Notes: generated from the letters alone by a model not told the origin. Positions 20,727-32,000 are shown, counted from the first letter of the stretch. The stretch: DNA of 32,000 nt from Acinetobacter wanghuae (GCF_009557235.1 NZ_CP045650.1:2130001-2162000); one strand, 5' to 3'. Made by a program: numbers and translations.

Positions 20727-22271
20727 CTAAATAGACTCAAAGAGCTCTACCCATTTTTTTAGAATACTAGTACTAGAAAAGTTTTGACTCAGTAATTTGG
20801 CTTGTTCGCGAATATGACTCATATTCTGTTGATCATTCAAGTATTGAATAATTTTTTGAGCGTATTGCTCTACATCACCATCTGCAATCAAATAGCCATT
20901 TTGGTTATGTTGAATCATTTCACTTGGTCCATAACGAATATCGAATGAAGTCACAGGACAGCCATTAGCAAGCGCTTCCATGATCACCAAACAAAAGGAT
21001 TCACTCTGACTGGTTAATAACAACATTGAAGCTTCTTGGAGCACTTGATTTACATCCGAAACAAAGGGCTTTAAGAAAATATGATTTTCAAGTTTTTTGT
21101 CTTTAATCATTTTCTTTAAGTTCGAATACTCTAGTCCGAAACCAAATAAATCTAAGGTCGCTTGTGGATGATGCGTAACTACACGTTCAAAAATTGAAAT
21201 GAGTAAATCTAAGCGTTTTACTTTGTCATACCGTGCCAAAGAAACGAATTTATAGGGATCAAATGTAAGATAATAATCATCAGGTCTATGCGCCAATGCA
21301 TGTGGAATCACTTTATAGTTATTATGTGCACCATAAAGTTCTTCAATATCCTTTTTCTGTCGGTGAGTCAAAATGATCAAACCAGATAATTTATCGATAT
21401 GCCTAAAATATGGTGTGTAATTTTTATTCGGTGAACTTTTTATATCATTTGGATTATTATAGTGCGCTGCATGAATTGTACCAAACATGAAGAAATTCGA
21501 AGGAATATTATCCTTCAGTAAAAGATTAAAAACATTTATACGGTCGATCAAGAAAAGATATTTCTTCCGCGGGTCAATACATAATTTTCGCTGAATTGTA
21601 TATTGAGCCAATTCGATCAAACTCTGACAACTTTGGATGACCATCCCGTGTTCATCGAATAAATGTAGATTCTGAATCACACGTTTATCCTTGTTATAGC
21701 CGTAATGAACTTGGATAACGAGTTTGCCATTCACATCAAAAAAACTCTCAGCAATAACTTTTTTTTCATTCAAAATTTGATTTGAACATAGCTTTCCATA
21801 GTCATCGTAACGACTACGACTTACGACTTGTCCATTTTCAAAAAAGTTGATATGAATGAGCTTAGAGGATTTAAATACTTCATAGCGTTTGGTTCTACCC
21901 GATGTATCTTTATATATACGATTATTGATTGAATCAAATTCAACACCATTTTCAACACATGCGGCGATTGAACAAAAATAATCGGATGACTTCTTTTGGT
22001 AATATGAAAAAAGATTAATCAATTCGATATTTTTTGTATTTTTTAATAAACAATCGCTATATAATTTTTCAAAATTTGCACGTGTATTCAAATCGTGTTC
22101 AATGGTTAAAATTTTTATTTTGTAACCATAATTTGCGAGTAACTCTGCTCGACGCAACATTGAAACTACAATACCTGTCTTATTTTCTGATATTTTAGGG
22201 TAAAGCATAAATATTTCTTTATTGCTCATATTCATTATGTATCCATATAGATTTTTATCTAAAAACAACAC
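20727..22271 (-). CDS. GT4 glycosyltransferase of the GtfA/SdgA/SdgB type (O-glycosylation of Ser-rich or Ser-Asp repeat proteins)
   Basis: 514-aa ORF. The track start at 22271 is a GTG that overlaps the upstream stop by 1 nt; ATG starts at 22235 or 22229 are at least as likely.
- The C-terminal GT-B half has the E-x7-E block SESFCLVIMEALANGCPV followed by FDIRYGPSEMIQHNQNGYLI. I remember streptococcal GtfA as ...FDVRYGN..FI.DGKNGYL.
- The mid-region GTIHAAHYNN...NKNYTPYF...LIILTHRQKKDIE resembles GtfA VVVHAEHF...WNNFYDYQ...FIVATEAQK.
- The N-terminal ELINLFSYY resembles GtfA IIWLYNFF.
- The length of about 500 aa suggests an inserted domain between the Rossmann halves.
- There is no signal peptide. 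Confidence 0.75.
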   Translation of the reverse strand: MLFLDKNLYGYIMNMSNKEIFMLYPKISENKTGIVVSMLRRAELLANYGYKIKILTIEHDLNTRANFEKLYSDCLLKNTKNIELINLFSYYQKKSSDYFCSIAACVENGVEFDSINNRIYKDTSGRTKRYEVFKSSKLIHINFFENGQVVSRSRYDDYGKLCSNQILNEKKVIAESFFDVNGKLVIQVHYGYNKDKRVIQNLHLFDEHGMVIQSCQSLIELAQYTIQRKLCIDPRKKYLFLIDRINVFNLLLKDNIPSNFFMFGTIHAAHYNNPNDIKSSPNKNYTPYFRHIDKLSGLIILTHRQKKDIEELYGAHNNYKVIPHALAHRPDDYYLTFDPYKFVSLARYDKVKRLDLLISIFERVVTHHPQATLDLFGFGLEYSNLKKMIKDKKLENHIFLKPFVSDVNQVLQEASMLLLTSQSESFCLVIMEALANGCPVTSFDIRYGPSEMIQHNQNGYLIADGDVEQYAQKIIQYLNDQQNMSHIREQAKLLSQNFSSTSILKKWVELFESI

Positions 22272-23332
22272 TATATCTTGGCAATTTTTTTACGTAAGTT
22301 TTGCGGTAAAAAATTATTCTTATACGGTGGTTGAGCCTTAATTGCTAACCATTCATAATAATCGACCTGCGCACATGCAACGGAATATGCCATAAAGCCA
22401 ACACCAGGCCCAACATTAACCTCGTAAATATAGATATCTCCATCTTGTGTAATCCCAAGGTCCAGCCCAATTGAATCCAATCTCCACGCAAATTGTTTTT
22501 GGAAATTTTGATTAAAATCATCAAATAACTGTCTGATACCTAGATTAATTTTATCCACGCTACTTGGGTAGTATTGCTCTAAAAATAGCTGTTCTCGAGT
22601 GGTGATTAATGCCCCGAGCATACCATTTGTAATATCAATCTCTTTGTTTAGATTCACGTAAGGGAAAAATTTAATGAGCTGCCATTTGCCCTCTTTCCCA
22701 CGTGTAATATGCATTCTAAAAACAGTCGTCTGTCCTAAATGAGTTTCACTTTTTAGAAATGGACTAACTGTATAACCTCTTTTGAGATTTTTTTTTGTAA
22801 ATTCTTCTAATTCACTTAAATTATATTCATGCTGTTCTTGCATTTGTTTTACTATATATACATCAGCATTCTTTTTAATTGTAACAATTCCCTTACCCTG
22901 ATTACTTGCATCGGGTTTACAAATAATCTTGCTATATTTATTTAGGCTATTTTTAATCACTGAAAAATCATTAAGCTCTAAAACCTCGATTAAATACTTC
23001 CTCAACGGTTCAACCTTATTCATAATTTTATAAACCGTTTCCTTCGTACCAATCCGATTATTTGCAAAAGGAATAAGCTCTGCTAACTTTAAGTAGCTTT
23101 CCATATCCTCTTCTTTCACAGCCAAACGATTCTGCACAACATCTGGAAAATCAAAAATCTCTTCAACAACTTTATTATTCCTTAAAGTTTTGCCCTTAAT
23201 TCTCTTATTCTTAAAATCAATATTTTTTGCAATGAATACATAAGCTTCATGTTTTTTTTGCTGAGCAACTGAAATAAAAATTTTCTCTATATCGGTTATC
23301 ACCATATTCGGTTTTAATACACCAAAAATCAT
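22271..23332 (-). CDS. ATP-grasp enzyme, YheC/YheD-like family
   Basis: 353-aa ORF. Motifs are FDFPDVVQNRL (like the YheC/D ...PDV.Y.R), IICKPDASNQGKGI (the P-loop-like ATP-grasp strand), FRMHITRGKEGKWQL, and GLDLGITQDGDIYIYEVNVGPG (the ATP-grasp C-terminal Mg/ATP motif). It has a 4-bp overlap with the upstream gene. No signal peptide. Confidence 0.7.
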   Translation of the reverse strand: MIFGVLKPNMVITDIEKIFISVAQQKKHEAYVFIAKNIDFKNKRIKGKTLRNNKVVEEIFDFPDVVQNRLAVKEEDMESYLKLAELIPFANNRIGTKETVYKIMNKVEPLRKYLIEVLELNDFSVIKNSLNKYSKIICKPDASNQGKGIVTIKKNADVYIVKQMQEQHEYNLSELEEFTKKNLKRGYTVSPFLKSETHLGQTTVFRMHITRGKEGKWQLIKFFPYVNLNKEIDITNGMLGALITTREQLFLEQYYPSSVDKINLGIRQLFDDFNQNFQKQFAWRLDSIGLDLGITQDGDIYIYEVNVGPGVGFMAYSVACAQVDYYEWLAIKAQPPYKNNFLPQNLRKKIAKI

Positions 23333-24129
23333 TTTTCATCGCTCCATTTCTGAATTATCATTAAAGCATTTGTAATATCTTTATTTCTCAACTCTATATT
23401 TTCATTATAGAAGTCAACAATATAACCTTTACATTTTTCTAATTTGAAAAATATTAATATGTTAAAAATACCTGGAACGAGGGTTCCTGTTTTAACAGCC
23501 GTTATCTTATTTTTCAGCTCAGATTCATAGGTATTTTTCACCCGAATCTCATCACCACTTTTAGAATAAAATACATGTTCCGTGATGTTAGACATTGCTT
23601 GAAATCGAGCATCCGTTAATTTCGCATCAAGAATAATTTTTAAATCTGATAAAGTTGTATATTGCAGTCGATCAGCAAGTCCATGCTCATTGACAAGATG
23701 GGTATTTATCATTCCACGCGTGCTATTGTACTGATTGATATAGCTTATAAAGTTATAGTCTTGGACTTTTTCTAAATATTTCCTTAAGACCGCAGCCGAT
23801 GTATTGCTCGAAGCAATCATTAAATTTTTGATTAAGTCTTGAACACGGTACAGCTCACCTACTTTTAGGTTATTACCACTGCCTTTTCTTACATCATCTT
23901 CAGTGACTTCCAGATATTCATCCATATCAATATTACTATTGAGTAATCTATCGAGCAGAAAAATTTTAGCTGTTGAAGCAGGCACCACCTTTCGATCAAT
24001 ATTCTTTTGATACAAGGTAAAATTCCCACCCTTTTCATACATTCTAATGAGGATATGCTTGCCTGTAAGTGACTGATTCAAACTATCTGACAGTCTAGCC
24101 ATTTTTTCGATTAATGGAATATTCTGCAT
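23329..24129 (-). CDS. Peptidase S11 (D-alanyl-D-alanine carboxypeptidase / PBP5-like) catalytic domain protein, apparently cytoplasmic
   Basis: 266-aa ORF with all three active-site motifs at family-typical spacing: S52-T-A-K55 (PASTAKIF), S107-S-N109 (IASSNTSA) and K213-T-G215 (AVKTGTL). It also has VNEHGLADRLQYTTLSDL, which resembles the S11 block NxHGL...T.A.DL. The N-terminus MQNIPLIEKMARLSDSLNQSLTGKH has no hydrophobic signal sequence, and there is no C-terminal PBP5 beta-sandwich domain. Confidence 0.75.
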   Translation of the reverse strand: MQNIPLIEKMARLSDSLNQSLTGKHILIRMYEKGGNFTLYQKNIDRKVVPASTAKIFLLDRLLNSNIDMDEYLEVTEDDVRKGSGNNLKVGELYRVQDLIKNLMIASSNTSAAVLRKYLEKVQDYNFISYINQYNSTRGMINTHLVNEHGLADRLQYTTLSDLKIILDAKLTDARFQAMSNITEHVFYSKSGDEIRVKNTYESELKNKITAVKTGTLVPGIFNILIFFKLEKCKGYIVDFYNENIELRNKDITNALMIIQKWSDEK

Positions 24130-24140
24130 TTACTAAGCAC

Positions 24141-25793
24141 TCACTCAAAATAGTTTAAGTAAGCAATGTAGCCAGACAAATTATGCTCTTGATCATCAAT
24201 ACGTGTTCTAAAGCGATCATGGCGAACATAGAAGGCATTTAATATTTTTTCAGGTTTTGCCATATACATAGCAACTTCAGGATAGAAATAGCCTGCACTT
24301 CTTTGGAATTCGACGCGTTGCTCAATGAGCTTCTTAAGCTCTTCAAATTTTGATTTTTCATAGAGCTCATCAAATCCTTGTTCTCGCATACGAATCACCA
24401 TTTTGTATGCAGACATCATCATCTCTAAAAAAGTCGCATAAGCTGTTTTGCGCTCTGCAATAAACTTCATATGTTTTAAATAATTATTTAACCCAAATTC
24501 AAAATATTTTTCTTCTGGGCATATTTTTGTAAGTTCATTGGTGCAATAACTTAACCAATGATCATGATATTTATCGTATTTCTTCTCTATAAAATGCTCA
24601 AACATCAACTTTACAGTTTGAAGTAATGTGGCATCTTGATTAATCTGATACAGTCTTAGCAGTCCTAAAGCTGCTTCTCCATCATAGTAAACGATACGGA
24701 ACTGCTCTTTAGTTTCTAAACTCGGATAGTCGAGAACATGGGTGGTTTTACCCTGATCATCAACCATATACAAAATGCCTTCAGCCAACTTCTCTGCAAC
24801 AGATTGATATTGAGCGTCTTGCGTAATCTCTTGGTATTTAGCAAACATGAAGATGGCAGCTGCGTTTGAGCCAAGCTTGATTTCAGCTTCATCTTCACCA
24901 TCAATCATAAACCCACATGACTTTTCTTCTTTGTAGAAAACTTGAATGGCGTATTCGATTGCAAGTCGGATTTTTGTTAAATATTCTTCCTTATCATCAA
25001 CTTCTAGCGTTTCTAACAAAGCATAGACTGCCGTGCAATGGCGCACCGTATTATAGCTTTTTAATTCGCGATCATAAGCTGGGAAGTATCCATAAATAAA
25101 CCTCCCATCTTCTTGAAGTTCATTATGTAAAAACGTGGCATTTTCTAGAACTAAAGAACGTATATGTGTTTTTAAGTCCGAATCTAGCTCACGCACACCA
25201 TTAACTGGTCCTGTACTTTGCAAGTTCAGCATTTTCTCATCTTCATAAAATGCTGAAACTGTATCAAATAACCAAACGTGCTTAAGTTGATCTAATTCTA
25301 AATTTTTAGTGATTGTTGGATACTTAGAATGAAGTGCGCGATTTACATTGTCTTGATCCCAAAAGGTAGGCTGATTGTAGACAATGCCCCGGATTAACGC
25401 TTTTCCATATAGCTCTTGCTCTAAGAAGCAAATCTCAAACTTTGAATCGAAACTTACACCTTTCCTAAAATGATTATTATGCATTTGGGTGTTCAGTGTT
25501 TGTTTAACATCTTGCCATGACTTTTGCTTAATATTCACAGCGATATCAAACTTTAAATACTCAGGTAGACCTCTTTTTTTATCGTACATTTTGTCCAAAA
25601 AATTAAGCGTTCTATTTAATGCTGTTTTAGCATCGGGTGCATTCGTACTCCATACTTTACAACGTGTAGTCGGTTCACCATAAGAAATAAACACCACATA
25701 AGGTGCTTGTGCAATTGTGATGAGCTCTTGATTCAACCAATCTTTTAATTTTTCTTTAAAGCTTAAATATTGACTTTGAGTAGTGATTTTCAT
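24141..25793 (-). CDS. Hypothetical 550-aa protein, first gene of the AT-rich operon; family not recognised
   Basis: Long clean ORF, 11 nt upstream of the next gene, with no signal peptide or TM segment. The C-terminal two thirds is helix-rich, with spaced aromatic and small-residue blocks (DGRFIYGYFP...YNTVRHCTAVYAL; LGSNAAAIFMFAKY; YYDGEAALGLLRLY). These remind me of alpha/alpha-toroid enzymes, but that is only an impression. Confidence 0.7.
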   Translation of the reverse strand: MKITTQSQYLSFKEKLKDWLNQELITIAQAPYVVFISYGEPTTRCKVWSTNAPDAKTALNRTLNFLDKMYDKKRGLPEYLKFDIAVNIKQKSWQDVKQTLNTQMHNNHFRKGVSFDSKFEICFLEQELYGKALIRGIVYNQPTFWDQDNVNRALHSKYPTITKNLELDQLKHVWLFDTVSAFYEDEKMLNLQSTGPVNGVRELDSDLKTHIRSLVLENATFLHNELQEDGRFIYGYFPAYDRELKSYNTVRHCTAVYALLETLEVDDKEEYLTKIRLAIEYAIQVFYKEEKSCGFMIDGEDEAEIKLGSNAAAIFMFAKYQEITQDAQYQSVAEKLAEGILYMVDDQGKTTHVLDYPSLETKEQFRIVYYDGEAALGLLRLYQINQDATLLQTVKLMFEHFIEKKYDKYHDHWLSYCTNELTKICPEEKYFEFGLNNYLKHMKFIAERKTAYATFLEMMMSAYKMVIRMREQGFDELYEKSKFEELKKLIEQRVEFQRSAGYFYPEVAMYMAKPEKILNAFYVRHDRFRTRIDDQEHNLSGYIAYLNYFE

Positions 25794-25885
25794 GACCTGT
25801 ACATGTCTATTTTTTAAAGAATTTTGTAATTAAAAGCTAACATGACTTATTTTTTTTGGCGATGTTATTTTATGTATGTTTTGTT

Positions 25886-25913
25886 TATTTATGTATATCT
25901 ATATTCGAGTCAA
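25886..25913 (-). promoter_or_regulatory. Candidate sigma70 promoter for the four-gene operon
   Basis: On the minus strand, TTGACT (revcomp of agtcaa, 25908-25913) is followed by a 16-nt spacer and then TAAATA (revcomp of tattta, 25886-25891). This lies about 95 nt upstream of the ATG at 25793 and just downstream of the adhesin terminator. Confidence 0.25.
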
Positions 25914-25923
25914 AATAAAGCGC

Positions 25924-25950
25924 ATAAAAAAGAGGCCCCTAGGGGCCTCT
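25924..25950 (-). terminator. Rho-independent terminator of the giant adhesin gene
   Basis: Perfect 20-bp palindrome agaggcccctaggggcctct (25931-25950). On the minus strand it is followed by a T-run (complement of the aaaaa at 25926-25930). It lies 24 nt after the stop codon at 25974-25976. Confidence 0.85.
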
Positions 25951-25973
25951 CTCTTTTACTGTCAATTTACTAA

Positions 25974-28900
25974 TTAATAGAGCAGCTGATTGTTTTCAAG
26001 TAAATCAGCAAGACTTACCGTTGTATTGTTTAAAACAACCAAGTTAGTAGCAGCGCCACTTAGTAAGCCTGGGCCATCTAAATCTACTCTAACTACAGCG
26101 TTCGCACCGCTTTGAGTAACTGTTACGAAGTCTTCAATATTACCTGCATCAACACCGCTCTCTTTGAGTAAGCCTCTCAGATCTAGGGTATCGCCTTGTG
26201 CGAAATTAAAGTCTGTCCATACATCGTTACCCAATGTACTGGTGTTACCTCCACTACTAGTATTCGCCAACAGATCATAGATCACCGTATCTGCGCCTAG
26301 GCCTGTGGTAAAGGTATCATTAGCAGATGTACTGAATACAAACTGACCTTCTTTAGTCGCTGTAATGTCAATGCTGAGCGTTGAGCTTGATGTACTTCCA
26401 TCAATACCAGTGATGGTGTAAGCAATTACATCATCAGCAACATCAGCAACATTTACACCTACTTTATTGGTATAGCTATAGTCACCATTACCAGAAACGG
26501 TCAAGAAGCCTTGTGCTGTTTCAATGGTCTCTGTGTCATGTCTACCTAGAGTAACGCCACCAATGGTCAATTTAGTAAAGCCACCACTTGTGATGTCAGC
26601 CCCTGCACCATCATACAGGTTACCTGTTACTGTTGGATGTGATTTAGTCACTACATCCGCAATAACATAAGTACTACCAGTAATATCTACTTGCAGATTT
26701 GGAGCAGAAGAACTCAATGTCGTTGAACCCTTCTGAATATTATAGTCAAAACTATAATTACCTGCCTCTAAAGTAGATAGGTCAATATCTATTAAAGAAG
26801 CTCCAAGAGTTTTTTCTGAAGTAGTGAGTACCTTCGTATAATAACCCGTACTAGCATTATAGGTACCACCAAAATTAGCATTTTGTACAGCAACGTTATC
26901 TTTCAATAAACGATACGTAACCGTGATAGTTGCTGAACTAACTACTCCTGATGTCTCAAGGGTCAGCGTTGCATTACTTATCTCATTTCCTAATGTAAAT
27001 GATGTTGAACCACCGCCTGAAGCTTGCCCTGAAGTGGTTGCAGTACTAACACTATTAGCAAAGGTGAGATCAATAAAATCATAACGATCATTGGTCAAGA
27101 CTGCTACTGCATTCACATCAGGATTTGCTTCAACAACCGTCACTGTACCGTCTTGTGCAGGATTTGCATCATCCCAAACAATTTCAGTACCATCAGCATC
27201 AACACGAATATTAAGGACTGCAGTTTCAGTATGGTAGCCATCATCAATGGTATAGGTGAAGCTATCTACCTTGCCATAAGAAGATGATTGCCCATTACCT
27301 ACATAGCTAAATGAACCATCAGGTTTAATGGTGAGCGTACCATGTGCACCCTCAATTGTTGTTCCTGCTGCAGTGACAGATGCTGTCGTACCTGTTTCCG
27401 AAGCAATTTGGGTTAATACCGCAGTGCTACCATGTGCCTCAGCAACCCAATCATCAGCACCTATACCGTTATTGTCTAAAGATACATTGCCCTCTACACG
27501 ACCATAATCATGTAAAGTTGAATCTGTGATCGTGATATCAGTATTACTCAACACACCTACATTCAGTAAACTGGTTAACAAATCTGTAATAGGTCCTGGC
27601 TCAGGTGGAGCAAGCGCAAGAGTATATAGACCTGCTGGTATGTCATTAAACTGTACATTTATCGCAGAGATATTTGTGTTTAGACCTTGCGGAGTAAATG
27701 TTACTGCATCTTGAGCTATCGCTACAATTTCACCTGTAACAATATCAATGACATTTAGGTCAACTGTATAAGCCCCATCTAGTAAACCTACAAGAGAACC
27801 AAGATCTGTCAGACTACCATCCACTCTAACAGTAATATCTTGGAATGAATTCTCTTTAACTTCAAACGTCAGTGCAGTCGTTCTAGGTAATAATTTCACA
27901 TCAATGGTTTGTCCTAAAACAGAAACTGCTCCTAAGGCGAAAATATCCCCAGTTTTACCGTTTAGATTATCCTGCTCATCGAAAGCAACTGCTGTATATA
28001 GATCATCCACTGCTGCAATATCTTCTGGAATTACACCATCCGCACTTAGATCATTCTCATTCCAATCGATTGTGACACCATTTTTGGTGATACGAATGTT
28101 TAGATTAGCAGTATCTGTGTGCAGACCATCATCAATCGTATAAGTGAAGGTATCTACTTTACCAGTTACATCTCCCGACAATGGATCTAAGACATAAGTG
28201 TATGAACCATTACTAAAGATCGTCAAAGTACCATACTGACCTTGAATGGCGGTTCCTGACTCATTGACTGTTACTGGAGCTGTCACGACTTCTGATGTAA
28301 TTGCCACTAATGTTGCAGTCGCATCATGTAACTCTCCATTAATGTCATCTTGTCCAGAACCATTTTCACCATTTTCAAATACATTACCTTGCGTTTGAAT
28401 CTGATTATGTTGAAGAGATGCTGAAATCTCCATTTCCAGTCCAGATAACAAACCTGTACCAGCAACAAGACCAGTTAAAGCAGTTAATAAACCACCTACT
28501 TCAGTTGAAGAAAGTGCAACTGTGTAATTACCTGGAGGTAAACCTTCAAAATTAACTTGGTTGGCTGTAATTGTAGTTGTAACTAGACCTCCATTACCAA
28601 CAAGCTGAGGAGTTAAGGTTACTGCATCCTGTGCAACGGCCACAATATCACCAGTATCACGATCGATAATAAGAAGGTCGGCAAAAGTGCTAGGACTTTG
28701 ACCAAATAACAATGAGCTCAATAATCCATCGACTATTCCTGTTAAAGCCTCAATACTTACAGAACCGGTTTGGCCCGTCACATCAACAGTTATGTCCTGC
28801 GTTGAATTTGGGGCAACAGTAAAGTTAAGAGGATTATTTGTTGGCAACAAGCTCACATTAATTATTTCTGCAAGCGCATCAAGCTCTAAGAATGCCGATG

Positions 28901-31900
28901 AACTGCCTGTCATAAGTATATTGTTGACTACAGTAGCGTCACTTAAATTCACTGAATCTAGGTCGTCAACTGCATCGATGTCTGATTCCACATCAGAGTC
29001 AGAGTCGCTGTCAGAGTCACTATCGCTGTCAGAGTCAGAGTCGCTATCGGAATCAGAATCGCTGTCGCTGTCTGAGTCAGAGTCAGAATCGCTGTCGCTG
29101 TCAGAATCAGAGTCAGAATCGCTGTCTGAGTCAGAATCGCTGTCGCTGTCAGAATCAGAGTCGCTATCGCTGTCAGAATCAGAGTCGCTATCGGAATCAG
29201 AATCGCTGTCGCTGTCTGAGTCAGAGTCGGAATCACTGTCGCTATCAGAATCAGAGTCGGAATCGCTATCGCTGTCTGAGTCAGAATCGCTGTCGCTGTC
29301 TGAGTCGGAATCGCTATCAGAGTCAGAATCGCTGTCGCTGTCAGAGTCGGAATCGCTGTCGCTGTCAGAGTCGGAATCGCTGTCGCTGTCAGAGTCGCTG
29401 TCGCTATCAGAATCAGAATCGCTGTCAGAGTCAGAATCGCTGTCAGAGTCAGAATCGCTGTCAGAGTCAGAATCGCTGTCAGAGTCAGAATCGCTGTCGC
29501 TATCAGAGTCGGAGTCGCTATCGCTGTCAGAATCGGAGTCGCTATCAGAGTCAGAATCGCTATCGCTGTCAGAATCGGAGTCGCTATCAGAGTCGCTGTC
29601 AGAATCAGAGTCAGAATCGCTGTCGCTGTCAGAATCAGAGTCGGAGTCGCTATCAGAGTCAGAGTCGCTATCAGAATCGGAATCACTATCGCTGTCTGAG
29701 TCAGAATCGCTGTCACTATCAGAGTCAGAGTCGCTGTCAGAGTCGGAATCGCTATCGCTGTCAGAATCGGAGTCGCTATCAGAGTCGGAGTCGCTGTCAG
29801 AGTCAGAGTCGCTGTCAGAGTCAGAATCGCTGTCGCTATCAGAGTCGGAATCGCTGTCGCTATCAGAGTCAGAATCGCTATCGGAGTCAGAATCACTATC
29901 GCTGTCTGAGTCACTGTCGCTGTCTGAGTCGGAATCACTATCGCTGTCTGAGTCAGAGTCGCTGTCGCTATCGGAGTCAGAGTCGCTGTCAGAGTCAGAG
30001 TCGCTGTCAGAGTCAGAATCGCTGTCGCTATCAGAGTCGGAATCGCTGTCGCTATCAGAGTCAGAATCGCTATCGGAGTCAGAATCACTATCGCTGTCTG
30101 AGTCACTGTCGCTGTCTGAGTCGGAATCACTATCGCTGTCTGAGTCAGAGTCGCTGTCGCTATCGGAGTCAGAGTCGCTGTCAGAATCAGAATCACTGTC
30201 GCTATCAGAGTCGGAGTCGCTATCAGAATCGGAGTCGCTATCGCTATCAGAGTCGGAGTCGCTATCAGAATCAGAGTCGCTGTCGGAATCAGAGTCAGAA
30301 TCGCTGTCGCTATCAGAATCAGAGTCGCTATCGCTATCAGAGTCGGAATCGCTGTCGCTATCAGAATCGGAGTCGCTGTCAGAGTCAGAATCGCTGTCTG
30401 AGTCAGAGTCGCTGTCGCTATCAGAGTCAGAATCGCTGTCGCTATCAGAGTCAGAATCGCTGTCGCTATCAGAATCAGAGTCGCTGTCGCTATCAGAGTC
30501 AGAATCGCTGTCGCTATCAGAGTCGGAATCGCTGTCGCTATCAGAGTCAGAGTCGCTGTCGCTGTCAGAATCAGAGTCGCTGTCGCTATCAGAGTCGGAA
30601 TCGCTGTCGCTATCAGAATCGGAGTCGCTGTCAGAGTCAGAATCGCTGTCTGAGTCAGAGTCGCTGTCGCTATCAGAGTCAGAATCGCTGTCGCTATCAG
30701 AATCAGAGTCGCTGTCGCTATCAGAGTCGGAATCGCTGTCGCTATCAGAATCGGAGTCGCTGTCAGAATCGGAGTCGCTGTCAGAGTCAGAATCGCTGTC
30801 GCTATCAGAGTCGGAATCGCTATCGCTGTCAGAATCGGAGTCGCTGTCAGAGTCAGAATCACTGTCGCTGTCAGAGTCGGAATCGCTGTCACTATCAGAG
30901 TCGGAATCGCTATCAGAGTCGGAATCGCTATCAGAGTCAGAATCGCTGTCGCTATCAGAGTCAGAATCGCTGTCAGAGTCAGAATCGCTGTCGCTATCAG
31001 AGTCGGAATCGCTGTCGCTATCAGAGTCAGAGTCGCTGTCGCTGTCAGAATCAGAGTCGCTGTCGCTATCAGAGTCGGAATCGCTGTCGCTATCAGAATC
31101 GGAGTCGCTGTCAGAGTCAGAATCGCTGTCTGAGTCAGAGTCGCTGTCGCTATCAGAGTCAGAATCGCTGTCGCTATCAGAATCAGAGTCGCTGTCGCTA
31201 TCAGAGTCGGAATCGCTGTCGCTATCAGAATCGGAGTCGCTGTCAGAATCGGAGTCGCTGTCAGAATCGGAGTCGCTGTCAGAATCGGAGTCGCTGTCAG
31301 AGTCAGAATCACTGTCGCTGTCAGAGTCGGAATCGCTGTCACTATCAGAGTCGGAATCGCTATCAGAGTCGGAATCGCTATCAGAGTCAGAATCGCTGTC
31401 GCTATCAGAGTCAGAATCGCTGTCAGAGTCAGAATCGCTGTCAGAATCAGAGTCACTATCGCTGTCAGAATCGGAATCGCTATCGCTGTCAGAATCGGAA
31501 TCGCTATCGCTGTCAGAGTCGGAGTCGCTGTCGCTATCAGAATCAGAGTCGCTGTCAGAGTCGCTGTCAGAGTCAGAATCGCTGTCGCTATCAGAGTCGG
31601 AATCGCTGTCGCTATCAGAGTCAGAATCGCTATCGGAGTCAGAATCACTATCGCTGTCTGAGTCACTGTCGCTGTCTGAGTCGGAATCACTATCGCTGTC
31701 TGAGTCAGAGTCGCTGTCGCTATCGGAGTCAGAGTCGCTGTCAGAATCAGAATCACTGTCGCTATCAGAGTCGGAGTCGCTATCAGAATCAGAGTCGCTG
31801 TCTGAGTCAGAGTCGCTGTCGGAATCAGAGTCAGAATCACTGTCGCTGTCAGAGTCGGAGTCGCTGTCGCTATCGCTATCAGAATCAGAGTCACTGTCGC

Positions 31901-32000
31901 TGTCTGAGTCGGAATCGCTGTCGCTATCAGAATCGGAATCACTGTCGCTGTCTGAGTCAGAGTCGCTGTCGCTGTCAGAATCGCTGTCAGAATCAGAGTC
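25974..32000 (-). CDS. Giant Ser-Asp-repeat, T1SS-type (Bap/RTX-like) surface adhesin; 5' end lies beyond the window (2008 codons visible)
   Basis: The 1005-aa track ORF begins at a GTG (cac, 28989-28991), but the same frame stays open upstream. The preceding codons are atc/aga/gtc/aga/gtc/gct, which read GAT TCT GAC TCT GAC AGC on the minus strand. The phase, with plus-strand codon starts divisible by 3, still reads Asp/Ser at 31980-32000. The C-terminal part has VCBS-like blocks ([14 protein letters not shown]...[11 protein letters not shown]) and a T1SS C-terminal target domain. Confidence 0.85.
25977..26336 (-). other. Type I secretion C-terminal target domain (about the last 120 aa of the adhesin)
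   Basis: [23 protein letters not shown]...[22 protein letters not shown]...[25 protein letters not shown]...[23 protein letters not shown]-stop. The pattern (D.I.DF...GD.LDL..LL ... vd.dG.g ... i.L ... L) matches the T1SS C-terminal target domain of the VCA0849 subclass as I remember it. Confidence 0.7.
27114..28976 (-). repeat. Two tandem, diverged modules of about 300-320 aa within the adhesin, each ending in a VCBS-like block
   Basis: Module 1 (aa 6-326) and module 2 (aa 327-626) align block by block:
- AVDDLDSV / AVDDLYTA
- [24 protein letters not shown] / [24 protein letters not shown]
- [18 protein letters not shown] / [18 protein letters not shown]
- [10 protein letters not shown] / [10 protein letters not shown]
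- [14 protein letters not shown]...[25 protein letters not shown] / [14 protein letters not shown]...[25 protein letters not shown]. Confidence 0.8.
28992..32000 (-). repeat. Uninterrupted Ser-Asp dipeptide repeat tract, at least 1003 codons, truncated by the window edge
   Basis: Only the codons GAC/GAT (Asp) and TCT/TCA/TCC/AGC/AGT (Ser) occur. Strict alternation is mirrored in the shadow ORF 28958-31942, which alternates [T/I] with [L/Q/P/A/V] without exception. Higher-order identical DNA blocks lie inside the tract (see findings). Confidence 0.9.

Follow-up and report, generated by a model that had tools for sequence, protein, structure and literature searches.

A Ser-Asp-repeat type I secretion adhesin of Acinetobacter wanghuae and an adjoining four-gene cassette proposed to modify its stalk

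A 32,000-nucleotide stretch of the Acinetobacter wanghuae genome (GCF_009557235.1, NZ_CP045650.1:2130001-2162000; hereafter the window, with positions counted from its first letter) contains a giant gene for an adhesin with a long Ser-Asp (SD) repeat stalk and, behind it on the same strand, a compact cassette of four genes. These encode an unnamed 550-aa protein, here termed UNK, an S11 peptidase-like protein, a YheC/D-family ATP-grasp enzyme and a glycosyltransferase (GT) related to the staphylococcal enzymes SdgA and SdgB. The statement best supported by our analysis is that the cassette is dedicated to the repeat stalk of the adhesin. In a survey of 151 Acinetobacter species genomes, 42 UNK loci were found in 39 species genomes, and in all 42 the C-terminus of a Bap-family adhesin was encoded either directly upstream or convergently just past the cassette. 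On balance, we consider it probable that the locus is a substrate-plus-modifier module, in which the stalk of a Bap-family adhesin exported by a type I secretion system (T1SS) would be modified by four cytoplasmic enzymes.

The adhesin and the Sdg-like glycosyltransferase

The minus-strand open reading frame (ORF) of the adhesin (25974-32000) remains open up to the window edge in translation, and the part inside the window begins with pure, unbroken (Asp-Ser)n (Table 1). In the whole genome, which is available as one 2.77-Mb contig, the ORF comprises 3,585 codons, of which the window holds the 3' two-thirds. The full Ser-Asp run amounts to 1,046 residues or 523 dipeptides (genome coordinates 2158992-2162129), is encoded by a mixture of codons (GAC/GAT and AGC/TCT/TCC) and is the sole run of its kind in the genome. 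From the N- to the C-terminus, the protein is composed of a BapA prefix domain (PF22783, 96.4 bits; NF033677, 75.7 bits; outside the window, at L001:11364-11732), a hydrophobic segment, nine Big_6 Ig-like domains, the SD run and a C-terminal part of ~1,000 residues, in which the BapA/Bap/LapF C-terminal domain (NCBIfam NF045619, 302 bits, cut-off 180), a single VCBS repeat (TIGR01965, 24 bits, cut-off 15.5) and a T1SS C-terminal target domain (TIGR03661, 49 bits, cut-off 17.6) were detected. As both the prefix and the C-terminal domains were found, the protein is classified on sequence grounds as a Bap-family T1SS adhesin. A first-pass annotation of the window had described a giant adhesin with at least 1003 SD residues, VCBS-like modules and a type I secretion signal, and translation and profile matches bear this out. 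Its further proposal that the adhesin feeds a T1SS agrees with the presence of the target domain; the T1SS genes, on the other hand, are not adjacent. Homologs of TolC, the ABC transporter and the membrane fusion protein (MFP) are located ~950 kb from the adhesin (genome 1206327-1211034) and share 57-76% identity with the T1SS that adjoins the adhesin in a sister locus, from which we infer that this distant set is probably cognate.

SD dipeptides are known to form the repeat region of 'beta-type' biofilm-associated proteins (BAPs) of Acinetobacter (ABSDF785, ABSDF2314; De Gregorio et al., 2015, PMC4647330). The adhesin studied here resembles them in its BapA prefix and its matches to the NCBIfam ABSDF2314-family and Bap C-terminal models, but differs in keeping nine Ig-like domains besides the SD run. 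Flanking enzymes are not mentioned in that publication, where the Sdg paper is cited for the role of the repeat region in surface exposure.

With regard to the GT, the best NCBIfam models were SdgA (2e-59) and SdgB (3.6e-54), followed by GtfA (2.4e-34), and the closest solved structures in a PDB sequence search were SdgB (2.7e-44) and TarM (1.7e-38), followed by GtfA/Gtf1. The GT-B catalytic core is recognized by PF00534 (Glycos_transf_1, 119.8 bits) and PF13692 (93.9 bits). The GT4 subgroup in question is defined by a beta-domain inserted on the GT-B fold, and in SdgB the SD peptide is bound within a basic groove of this insert (PMC8561734). Residues 27-510 of the GT align with positions 9-492 of the 496 positions of the SdgB model and residues 16-513 with TarM 5-498, so that both alignments span the region of the inserted beta-stranded domain (DUF1975); the Pfam model for the insert itself is silent at E<=0.01. 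These alignments argue for the GtfA/Sdg type, as first proposed, and against a generic GT4 enzyme.

The likeness to the SdgA/SdgB system (ClfA, SdrC/D/E) extends from this full-length alignment of GT4 GT-B enzymes to the donor-site His and an E-x7-E stretch, which align between SdgB and the GT, and to the genomic setting, a GT gene beside the gene for a long Ser-Asp protein. In both cases the enzyme lacks a signal peptide and would act in the cytoplasm. In staphylococci, the order of sdr genes followed by GT genes has already been published (PMC3794999; PMC8360574). Differences are also apparent: the GT is only ~29% identical to its staphylococcal relatives in the aligned part, it is a single enzyme instead of one of a pair, it is accompanied by UNK, ATP-grasp and S11 proteins, and its presumed substrate leaves a diderm cell through a T1SS and not via Sec and sortase. 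TarM and GtfA/GtfB belong to the same GT4 subfamily with an inserted domain and likewise act on long, repetitive, hydroxyl-bearing polymers (PMC8561734). The acceptor of TarM, however, is poly-ribitol-phosphate, and GtfA requires GtfB and an accessory Sec system, neither of which is present in the window locus.

The GT gene is situated ~3.7 kb from the adhesin stop codon. Its N-terminal half has relatives in 69 of about 36,000 genera, comprising 48 Bacillota and about 3 Gammaproteobacteria, and was found in 0 of 400 other Gammaproteobacteria genomes searched. The GC content of the cassette (20727-25793) is 33.4%, vs. 40.6% for the genome and 40.4% for the C-terminal part of the adhesin gene. 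Taken together, this low value and the occurrence of the GT type chiefly in Bacillota suggest a horizontal origin of the cassette.

The four-gene cassette

The cassette genes are closely packed, with an 11-nt gap between the genes for UNK and S11 and a 4-bp overlap between those for S11 and ATP-grasp, in agreement with the spacing given by the first-pass annotation. Its third junction, a 1-nt overlap, presupposes the alternative GTG start of the GT ORF at 22271, which overlaps the ATP-grasp stop codon by 1 nt. The recorded product of 502 aa starts at Met13; this record and the SdgB alignment favour the ATG at 22235 as the probable start, by which the overlap becomes a 35-nt gap. The strong terminator predicted between adhesin and cassette was confirmed as a perfect, GC-rich hairpin (25931-25950) 3' of the adhesin stop codon with a T-run behind it on the minus strand. 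The identities first given to the four proteins (an unknown 550-aa protein, S11, YheC/D ATP-grasp and Sdg-type GT) were upheld by profile searches. Hydrophobic segments are absent from all of them (no 19-residue Kyte-Doolittle window above 1.6), in line with the earlier claim that signal peptides are lacking, a claim judged here from hydropathy only.

Table 1. Features of the adhesin locus and the cassette in window coordinates.
Feature	Position	Strand	Basis and remarks
(Ser-Asp)n stalk	28992..32000	-	Translation, run length; 1,003 residues in window, gene continues beyond edge
Adhesin C-terminal non-repeat part	25974..28991	-	NF045619 at ~26364-27866; VCBS repeat; T1SS target domain at ~25983-26225; stop codon 25974-25976
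Terminator-like hairpin and T-run at adhesin/cassette boundary	25924..25950	-	AGAGGCCCC-TA-GGGGCCTCT; sequence read, consensus palindrome scan agrees
UNK, 550-aa cytoplasmic protein	24141..25793	-	N-terminal alpha/beta domain and (alpha/alpha)6 barrel in predicted model
S11 (DD-peptidase/penicillin-binding) catalytic domain alone, 266 aa	23329..24129	-	PF00768, 67.8 bits
YheC/D-family ATP-grasp carboxylate-amine ligase, 353 aa	22271..23332	-	PF14398, 113.7 bits
GT4 glycosyltransferase, SdgA/SdgB-TarM-GtfA type	20727..22271; probable gene 20727-22235	-	NCBIfam and PDB sequence matches

UNK matches no family in Pfam or NCBIfam and no sequence in the PDB. Its structure was predicted with high confidence (predicted local distance difference test, pLDDT, 94.8), and Foldseek related the model to mannose isomerase, cellobiose 2-epimerase and GH76 enzymes (E 3e-07, TM 0.64-0.67 by target, 10-13% identity). 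By sequence, UNK is not a member of the AGE-type sugar epimerase/hydrolase family, to which its extra 200-aa N-terminal domain is foreign. The invariant or near-invariant residues in the alignment of the family are rich in Arg, His, Lys, Asp and Glu, the invariant ones including R201, N248, Y370, R493, E506 and D533/D534; there is no Cys among those listed, and a LanC-like cyclase was rejected on this ground. The family comprises 1,564 representative relatives (clusters), with carriers in 906 genera from many phyla, and members are labelled 'poly alpha-glucosyltransferase' at NCBI, a label that could not be traced to evidence. Among the long relatives, fusions of the types UNK-PGA_cap, UNK-YheC/D-Mur ligase and UNK-PGA_cap-Mur ligase-ATP-grasp-acylphosphatase occur, as well as UNK-PGA_cap-Sdg-like GT, in which the GT part, insert region included, is 29% identical to the window GT. 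As UNK is fused to these enzymes elsewhere, the enzyme types of the cassette belong to one recurrent module.

The S11 protein retains all catalytic motifs (STAK52, SSN107, KTG213) at PBP5-like spacing and has no hydrophobic N-terminus (maximum 19-residue hydropathy 1.55 at residue 209). DacB, PBP4 and the K15 DD-transpeptidase are distant relatives in the PDB, and all NCBIfam equivalog scores are far below the respective cut-offs. These features indicate a protein of DD-peptidase fold and not a classical exported penicillin-binding protein. For the ATP-grasp protein, no match was obtained in the PDB sequence search. Its model (pLDDT 89.9) matched ATP-grasp ligases with a Foldseek probability of 1.0, about equally for D-Ala-D-Ala ligase, RimK, TTL, LysX, glutathione synthetase and ligases of peptides that are made ribosomally and modified after translation (RiPPs); the fold search does not separate protein-modifying from small-molecule ligases.

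Distribution of UNK and its partners

Within the Acinetobacter sample, UNK is encoded in 40 of the 151 genomes. SD-coding runs were detected in 23 genomes, 20 of them robust, and UNK is present in every one of these 20. Draft assemblies break in SD-coding repeats, UNK often being located 3-5 kb from a contig end (e.g., G001:C26, G126:C39 and the end of G112:C4), and some repeats are masked as N, so that counts of SD adhesins from draft genomes are underestimates. The N-domain of the Sdg-like GT occurs in 18 genomes, nearly always encoded within the adhesin locus, and 15 of these also have SD runs. In the remaining three, the adhesin is masked as N, the GT gene resides on a 1.9-kb contig or, in the genome G100, the adhesin gene encodes a 150-aa (Ser-X)n tract (SDSTSNSDSI...) and has the GT gene immediately behind it, in an arrangement without UNK.

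The 42 UNK loci, in several of which the cassette lies between adhesin and TolC genes, fall into 19 SD-type loci and 23 Ig-type loci whose adhesins are devoid of SD repeats; five genomes possess one of each type, and a sixth has a masked SD-type adhesin. The SD-type loci display at least five arrangements, with a GT in 14, an ATP-grasp enzyme in 9 and an S11/PGA_cap-fused MurF-like Mur ligase in 2, such that a GT alone, a ligase alone or both may be present. The lone exception (G104) has an IS5-family transposase gene directly after UNK (L041:7039-7755) and GT and PGA_cap genes 20 kb away on the same contig (L080:14753-18041), and looks like a locus split by IS5 insertion. In one SD-type locus (L033:5370-8561), a 1,064-aa MurF-like ligase/S11/PGA_cap fusion is encoded. 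Putative HExxH metalloproteases of 330-370 aa with a weak MXAN_6640 match adjoin the GT in several SD-type loci (L039:2-985, L043:17370-18410, L048:1552-2649). The one member checked, that of L039, has a hydrophobic N-terminal segment and may be exported, and the A. wanghuae genome contains a copy with 35-44% identity at 1747588-1748505, outside the cassette.

The Ig-type loci encode only UNK and a 577-aa protein (L066:14644-16374 and 22 alike), in which a degenerate S11-like domain without SxN/KTG motifs is fused to PGA_cap; none contains a GT, an ATP-grasp enzyme or a Mur ligase. The idea of the first-pass annotation that the four genes form one SD-specific cassette cannot be maintained in the light of these 23 Bap adhesins followed by UNK and the S11-like/PGA_cap protein. 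PGA_cap was also considered as a peptide epimerase; the match to the MslH model (PMC10406935) is weak, at 30-43 bits vs. a cut-off of 700 over ~42 residues, and is a lead only, for a domain that does not occur in the window. Only two Ig-type loci reach the adhesin N-terminus (L059:189, L060:751). Both feature a 16-aa Asp-Ala tract, DADADADADADADSDV, just past the BapA prefix region, which could be a vestige or a minimal UNK target. This tract sits where the adhesin of G100 holds its (Ser-X)n tract.

When the search was extended beyond the genus by scanning species genomes with the UNK alignment, 80 named loci were obtained, 50 of them outside Acinetobacter. An (Asp-X)n ORF (run of at least 24 residues, mostly 300-1,500) is located within 10 kb of UNK in 33 of these 50. 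In 24, UNK is encoded on the same strand at a distance of 63-523 bp behind the stop codon of the repeat gene, and the repeat protein carries a C-terminus with LPxTG, a membrane segment and a basic tail. This group includes eight coagulase-negative Staphylococcus species, Listeria, Brochothrix, Exiguobacterium, Paenibacillus and many Bacillaceae, e.g., Staphylococcus simulans (L142, 6598-9858 and 10001-11545), Listeria newyorkensis (L175) and Brochothrix campestris (L135; range of the example loci L128-L178). A gene for a dedicated sortase, a YheC/D ATP-grasp enzyme or a Mur ligase often follows UNK. In Proteobacteria (Phyllobacterium, Nitratireductor, Ectorhizobium, Paraburkholderia, Paenalcaligenes), giant (Asp-Ala)n proteins are found together with a UNK-Mur ligase fusion encoded after T1SS genes. 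As an example, locus L098 (L098:3-12896, GCA_040392545.1) encodes a T1SS adhesin whose (Asp-Ala)n part, located at a contig break, counts at least 370 residues, then TolC, ABC transporter, MFP and a 1,422-aa UNK/YheC-D/Mur-ligase fusion, and is closed by a 300-aa HExxH protein; a GT is lacking, in keeping with the Ser-free repeat. It follows that neither the SD specificity nor the diderm setting that had been put forward is a distinguishing trait, given that UNK modules exist in many phyla, often beside Ser-free Asp-Ala repeat proteins, and in Bacillota in similar arrangements beside sortase-anchored repeat proteins.

Outside Acinetobacter, a GT accompanies none of 25 loci with Asp-Ala repeats, none of five with mixed repeats and three of six with SD repeats; two further loci are cut just upstream of UNK. 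In Bacillus cytotoxicus, of the Bacillus cereus group, the gene for an SD(A)-repeat LPxTG protein is divergent from a pair of genes for UNK and an Sdg-like GT. Edwardsiella anguillarum (GCA_003425865.1, L179:2464-11554) encodes a BapA_N adhesin with a (GSDSDSDAEGGA)n stalk, followed by TolC, ABC transporter, MFP and an Sdg-like GT that is 33% identical to the window GT and has 37.8% GC in a locus of 54% GC. UNK is missing here, and the locus is an independent instance, in a Gram-negative, of an Sdg-like GT paired with a Ser/Asp-rich T1SS adhesin. The proposed co-occurrence of the GT with SD repeats is consistent with the 15 of 18 Acinetobacter GT genomes, B. cytotoxicus and E. anguillarum, with the reservation that the association within Acinetobacter corresponds to a single change on the UNK tree, as detailed below. 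In Limnobacter parvus and a related metagenome contig (L084, L092), the genes for TamA/TamB are immediately followed by one for a UNK-Mur ligase or a UNK-PGA_cap-Sdg-like GT protein. A further Limnobacter locus (L158) has, 6.4 kb upstream, a masked stretch that includes 28 residues of Ser-Asp.

Proposed modification of the stalk and alternative explanations

In the proposed mechanism, the long polyanionic Ser-Asp stalk would set the cell-proximal Ig domains apart from the distal C-terminal modules, and the four soluble enzymes would act on the still unfolded stalk in the cytoplasm, before the C-terminal signal routes the adhesin through the T1SS. The best-supported step is that of the Sdg-like GT4 enzyme, which would transfer a sugar, probably an N-acetylhexosamine, from a uridine diphosphate (UDP)-sugar to Ser residues of the stalk, as SdgB does on staphylococcal SD repeats; the GT would be present because the repeat contains Ser. 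UNK, ATP-grasp and S11 would belong to a wider, unnamed module that accompanies (Asp-X)n surface proteins, sortase-anchored in Bacillota and T1SS-exported in Proteobacteria. UNK, its constant member, would recognise or process the Asp-X repeat and could be an enzyme, a recognition subunit or a chaperone. The ATP-grasp enzyme, in whose place a MurF-like Mur ligase is found elsewhere, would attach an amine or an amino acid to Asp side-chain carboxylates after activating them, and the S11 protein, with its motifs intact, would trim or edit the addition made by the ligase. Modification of the Asp side chain is the most economical assumption, because Asp is common to all repeats and ligase folds activate carboxylates. 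Within Acinetobacter, the ligases occur only in SD-type loci, and elsewhere they are found beside Asp-Ala repeats, too. The MurF-like ligase of sister loci and the intact DD-peptidase motifs of S11 hint at D-Ala chemistry. Amide ligases such as RimK and TTL/TTLL offer a parallel, ATP-grasp or Mur-ligase folds near a polyanionic peptide, at the level of the fold only. In cyanophycin synthetase, the M domain is Mur-ligase-like and decorates polypeptide carboxylates.

A much broader version of this idea, which we regard as a tentative and rather doubtful possibility, is a cross-phylum system for the post-translational modification of ribosomally made (Asp-X)n stalks, with UNK as the repeat-handling subunit throughout, ligases that graft amino acids (possibly D-Ala or D-Ala-D-Ala) on Asp, S11 as editor and an Sdg-like GT that adds sugar if X is Ser. 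Such a system would be a protein-based counterpart of decorated teichoic acid or cyanophycin, made in the cytoplasm and exported via sortase pathways or T1SS. If the GT step is correct, it would mean that an adhesin of a Gram-negative bacterium undergoes O-glycosylation of the Sdg type before type I secretion, and would bear on protease resistance and host recognition of Acinetobacter biofilm adhesins. The clear genomic signature of the UNK family, whose members are encoded beside Asp-dipeptide-repeat surface proteins and along with amide ligases in staphylococci, Listeria, bacilli, Acinetobacter and rhizobia, may outweigh the GT result in importance, as it opens the role of such widespread acidic stalks, and that of YheC/D-type ligases, to direct testing.

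The first-pass annotation was aware of no characterised example, which holds in so far as we found no report of a link between such adhesins and modifying enzymes; it does not hold for the adhesin type itself, since an SD-repeat Bap of Acinetobacter has been published (PMC4647330). SD-repeat Bap proteins have been known since 2015, and their link to modifying enzymes is apparently undescribed. A literature search, with most subscription journals outside its reach, returned no report of an Sdg-like GT with a T1SS adhesin or of a glycosylated T1SS substrate. Similarly, no report was found of the UNK family or its link with Asp-dipeptide-repeat proteins and amide ligases; an earlier description of any of these is possible.

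Several observations weigh against a dedicated stalk-modifying cassette. The GT scores 201.5 and 184.3 bits with the SdgA and SdgB models, vs. a curated cut-off of 800, and is on this basis to be viewed as a relative of the Sdg enzymes and not as an SdgA/SdgB ortholog. With a strong terminator between adhesin and cassette, co-transcription is not assured. In the UNK tree, all Ig-type loci group in a single clade, with a support of 98, that arises from within a grade of SD-type loci, so that the SD/Ig association within Acinetobacter represents one evolutionary change and not independent events, and UNK is retained beside these Ig-type Bap adhesins without a long Asp-X run. Outside the genus, 17 of the 50 loci have no repeat ORF within 10 kb, the SD-type loci L145, L178 and L093 have no GT within reach, and neither the Limnobacter-like loci, where a fused UNK comes after TamAB, nor those of Variovorax show a clear repeat protein in the vicinity. 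A T1SS target domain was found within 5 kb in only about 3 of 300 UNK carriers, and for this reason the T1SS link of UNK is not general. Finally, the resemblance of the UNK fold to sugar epimerases/hydrolases is a poor fit to the Asp-Ala loci that lack a GT.

The main rival explanation, which we judge unlikely, is that the cassette serves the synthesis or remodelling of a free polymer or of an envelope component that would act beside the adhesin in the biofilm matrix, such as a poly-amino-acid or glycopeptide akin to poly-gamma-glutamate, teichuronopeptide or cyanophycin, and that the adhesin stays unmodified. The fusion or adjacency of UNK to PGA_cap (CapA-like), Mur-ligase (CapB/MurF-like) and ATP-grasp domains, typical of polymer synthesis, would suit this explanation, as would the fused UNK forms beside TamAB with no adhesin near, the likeness of the UNK barrel to carbohydrate enzymes and the activity of TarM, structurally close to the GT, which glycosylates a polyanion that is not a protein. 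However, the four proteins look soluble and the cassette has no membrane, export or polymerase-anchoring part. A free polymer would also leave unexplained why the module occupies a near-invariant site directly after the stop codon of the repeat protein in two phyla, why it is paired with dedicated sortases or T1SS genes and why the GT tracks Ser in the repeat. A poly-gamma-glutamate system proper (CapB/PgsB, CapC, CapA/PgsA) was rejected: the likeness is confined to PGA_cap and Mur-ligase domains in sister loci and UNK fusions, whereas the window lacks CapB, CapC and any membrane component, and PGA_cap was found neither in the window nor in the genome (tblastn).

Also improbable, and placed after the free polymer, is a division of labour in which the GT alone modifies the stalk, while UNK, perhaps with S11 and ATP-grasp, has a chaperone or quality-control function and either maintains the extremely acidic, disordered repeat in a state fit for export or breaks down substrate that has stalled. 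UNK is encoded beside every repeat type, with or without ligases or GT, its conserved residues, among which Arg, His and Lys are frequent, are suited to bind a polyanion, and the S11-like domain of the Ig-type loci has lost its catalytic motifs. Such a role is more difficult to reconcile with the modelled enzyme-like barrel of UNK and its invariant acidic and basic residues, the repeated fusions of UNK to ATP-dependent ligases and the retention of all three catalytic motifs in the window S11. That the cassette is a horizontally acquired island placed beside the adhesin by chance and serving an unrelated pathway, e.g., cell-wall precursor or small-molecule metabolism, might be argued from its GC content of 33.4% in a genome of 40.6%, the intervening terminator and the cell-wall enzymes among the S11 and ATP-grasp families, but is close to refuted by the comparative data, as chance cannot yield an adjacency that recurs in 42 Acinetobacter loci and dozens from other genera and phyla.

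In assembled metatranscriptome contigs, one run contained short pieces with 100% identity to the adhesin C-terminus and to the GT, ATP-grasp and S11 genes, and two further runs covered mainly the adhesin C-terminus; such contigs are uninformative as to operon structure, strand and level of expression, and may derive from carried-over DNA. The remaining content of the window is of a housekeeping nature and comprises nuo genes and genes for ribonucleotide reductase, a two-component system, a TonB-dependent receptor, a pyrroloquinoline quinone (PQQ) glucose dehydrogenase and an OprB porin.

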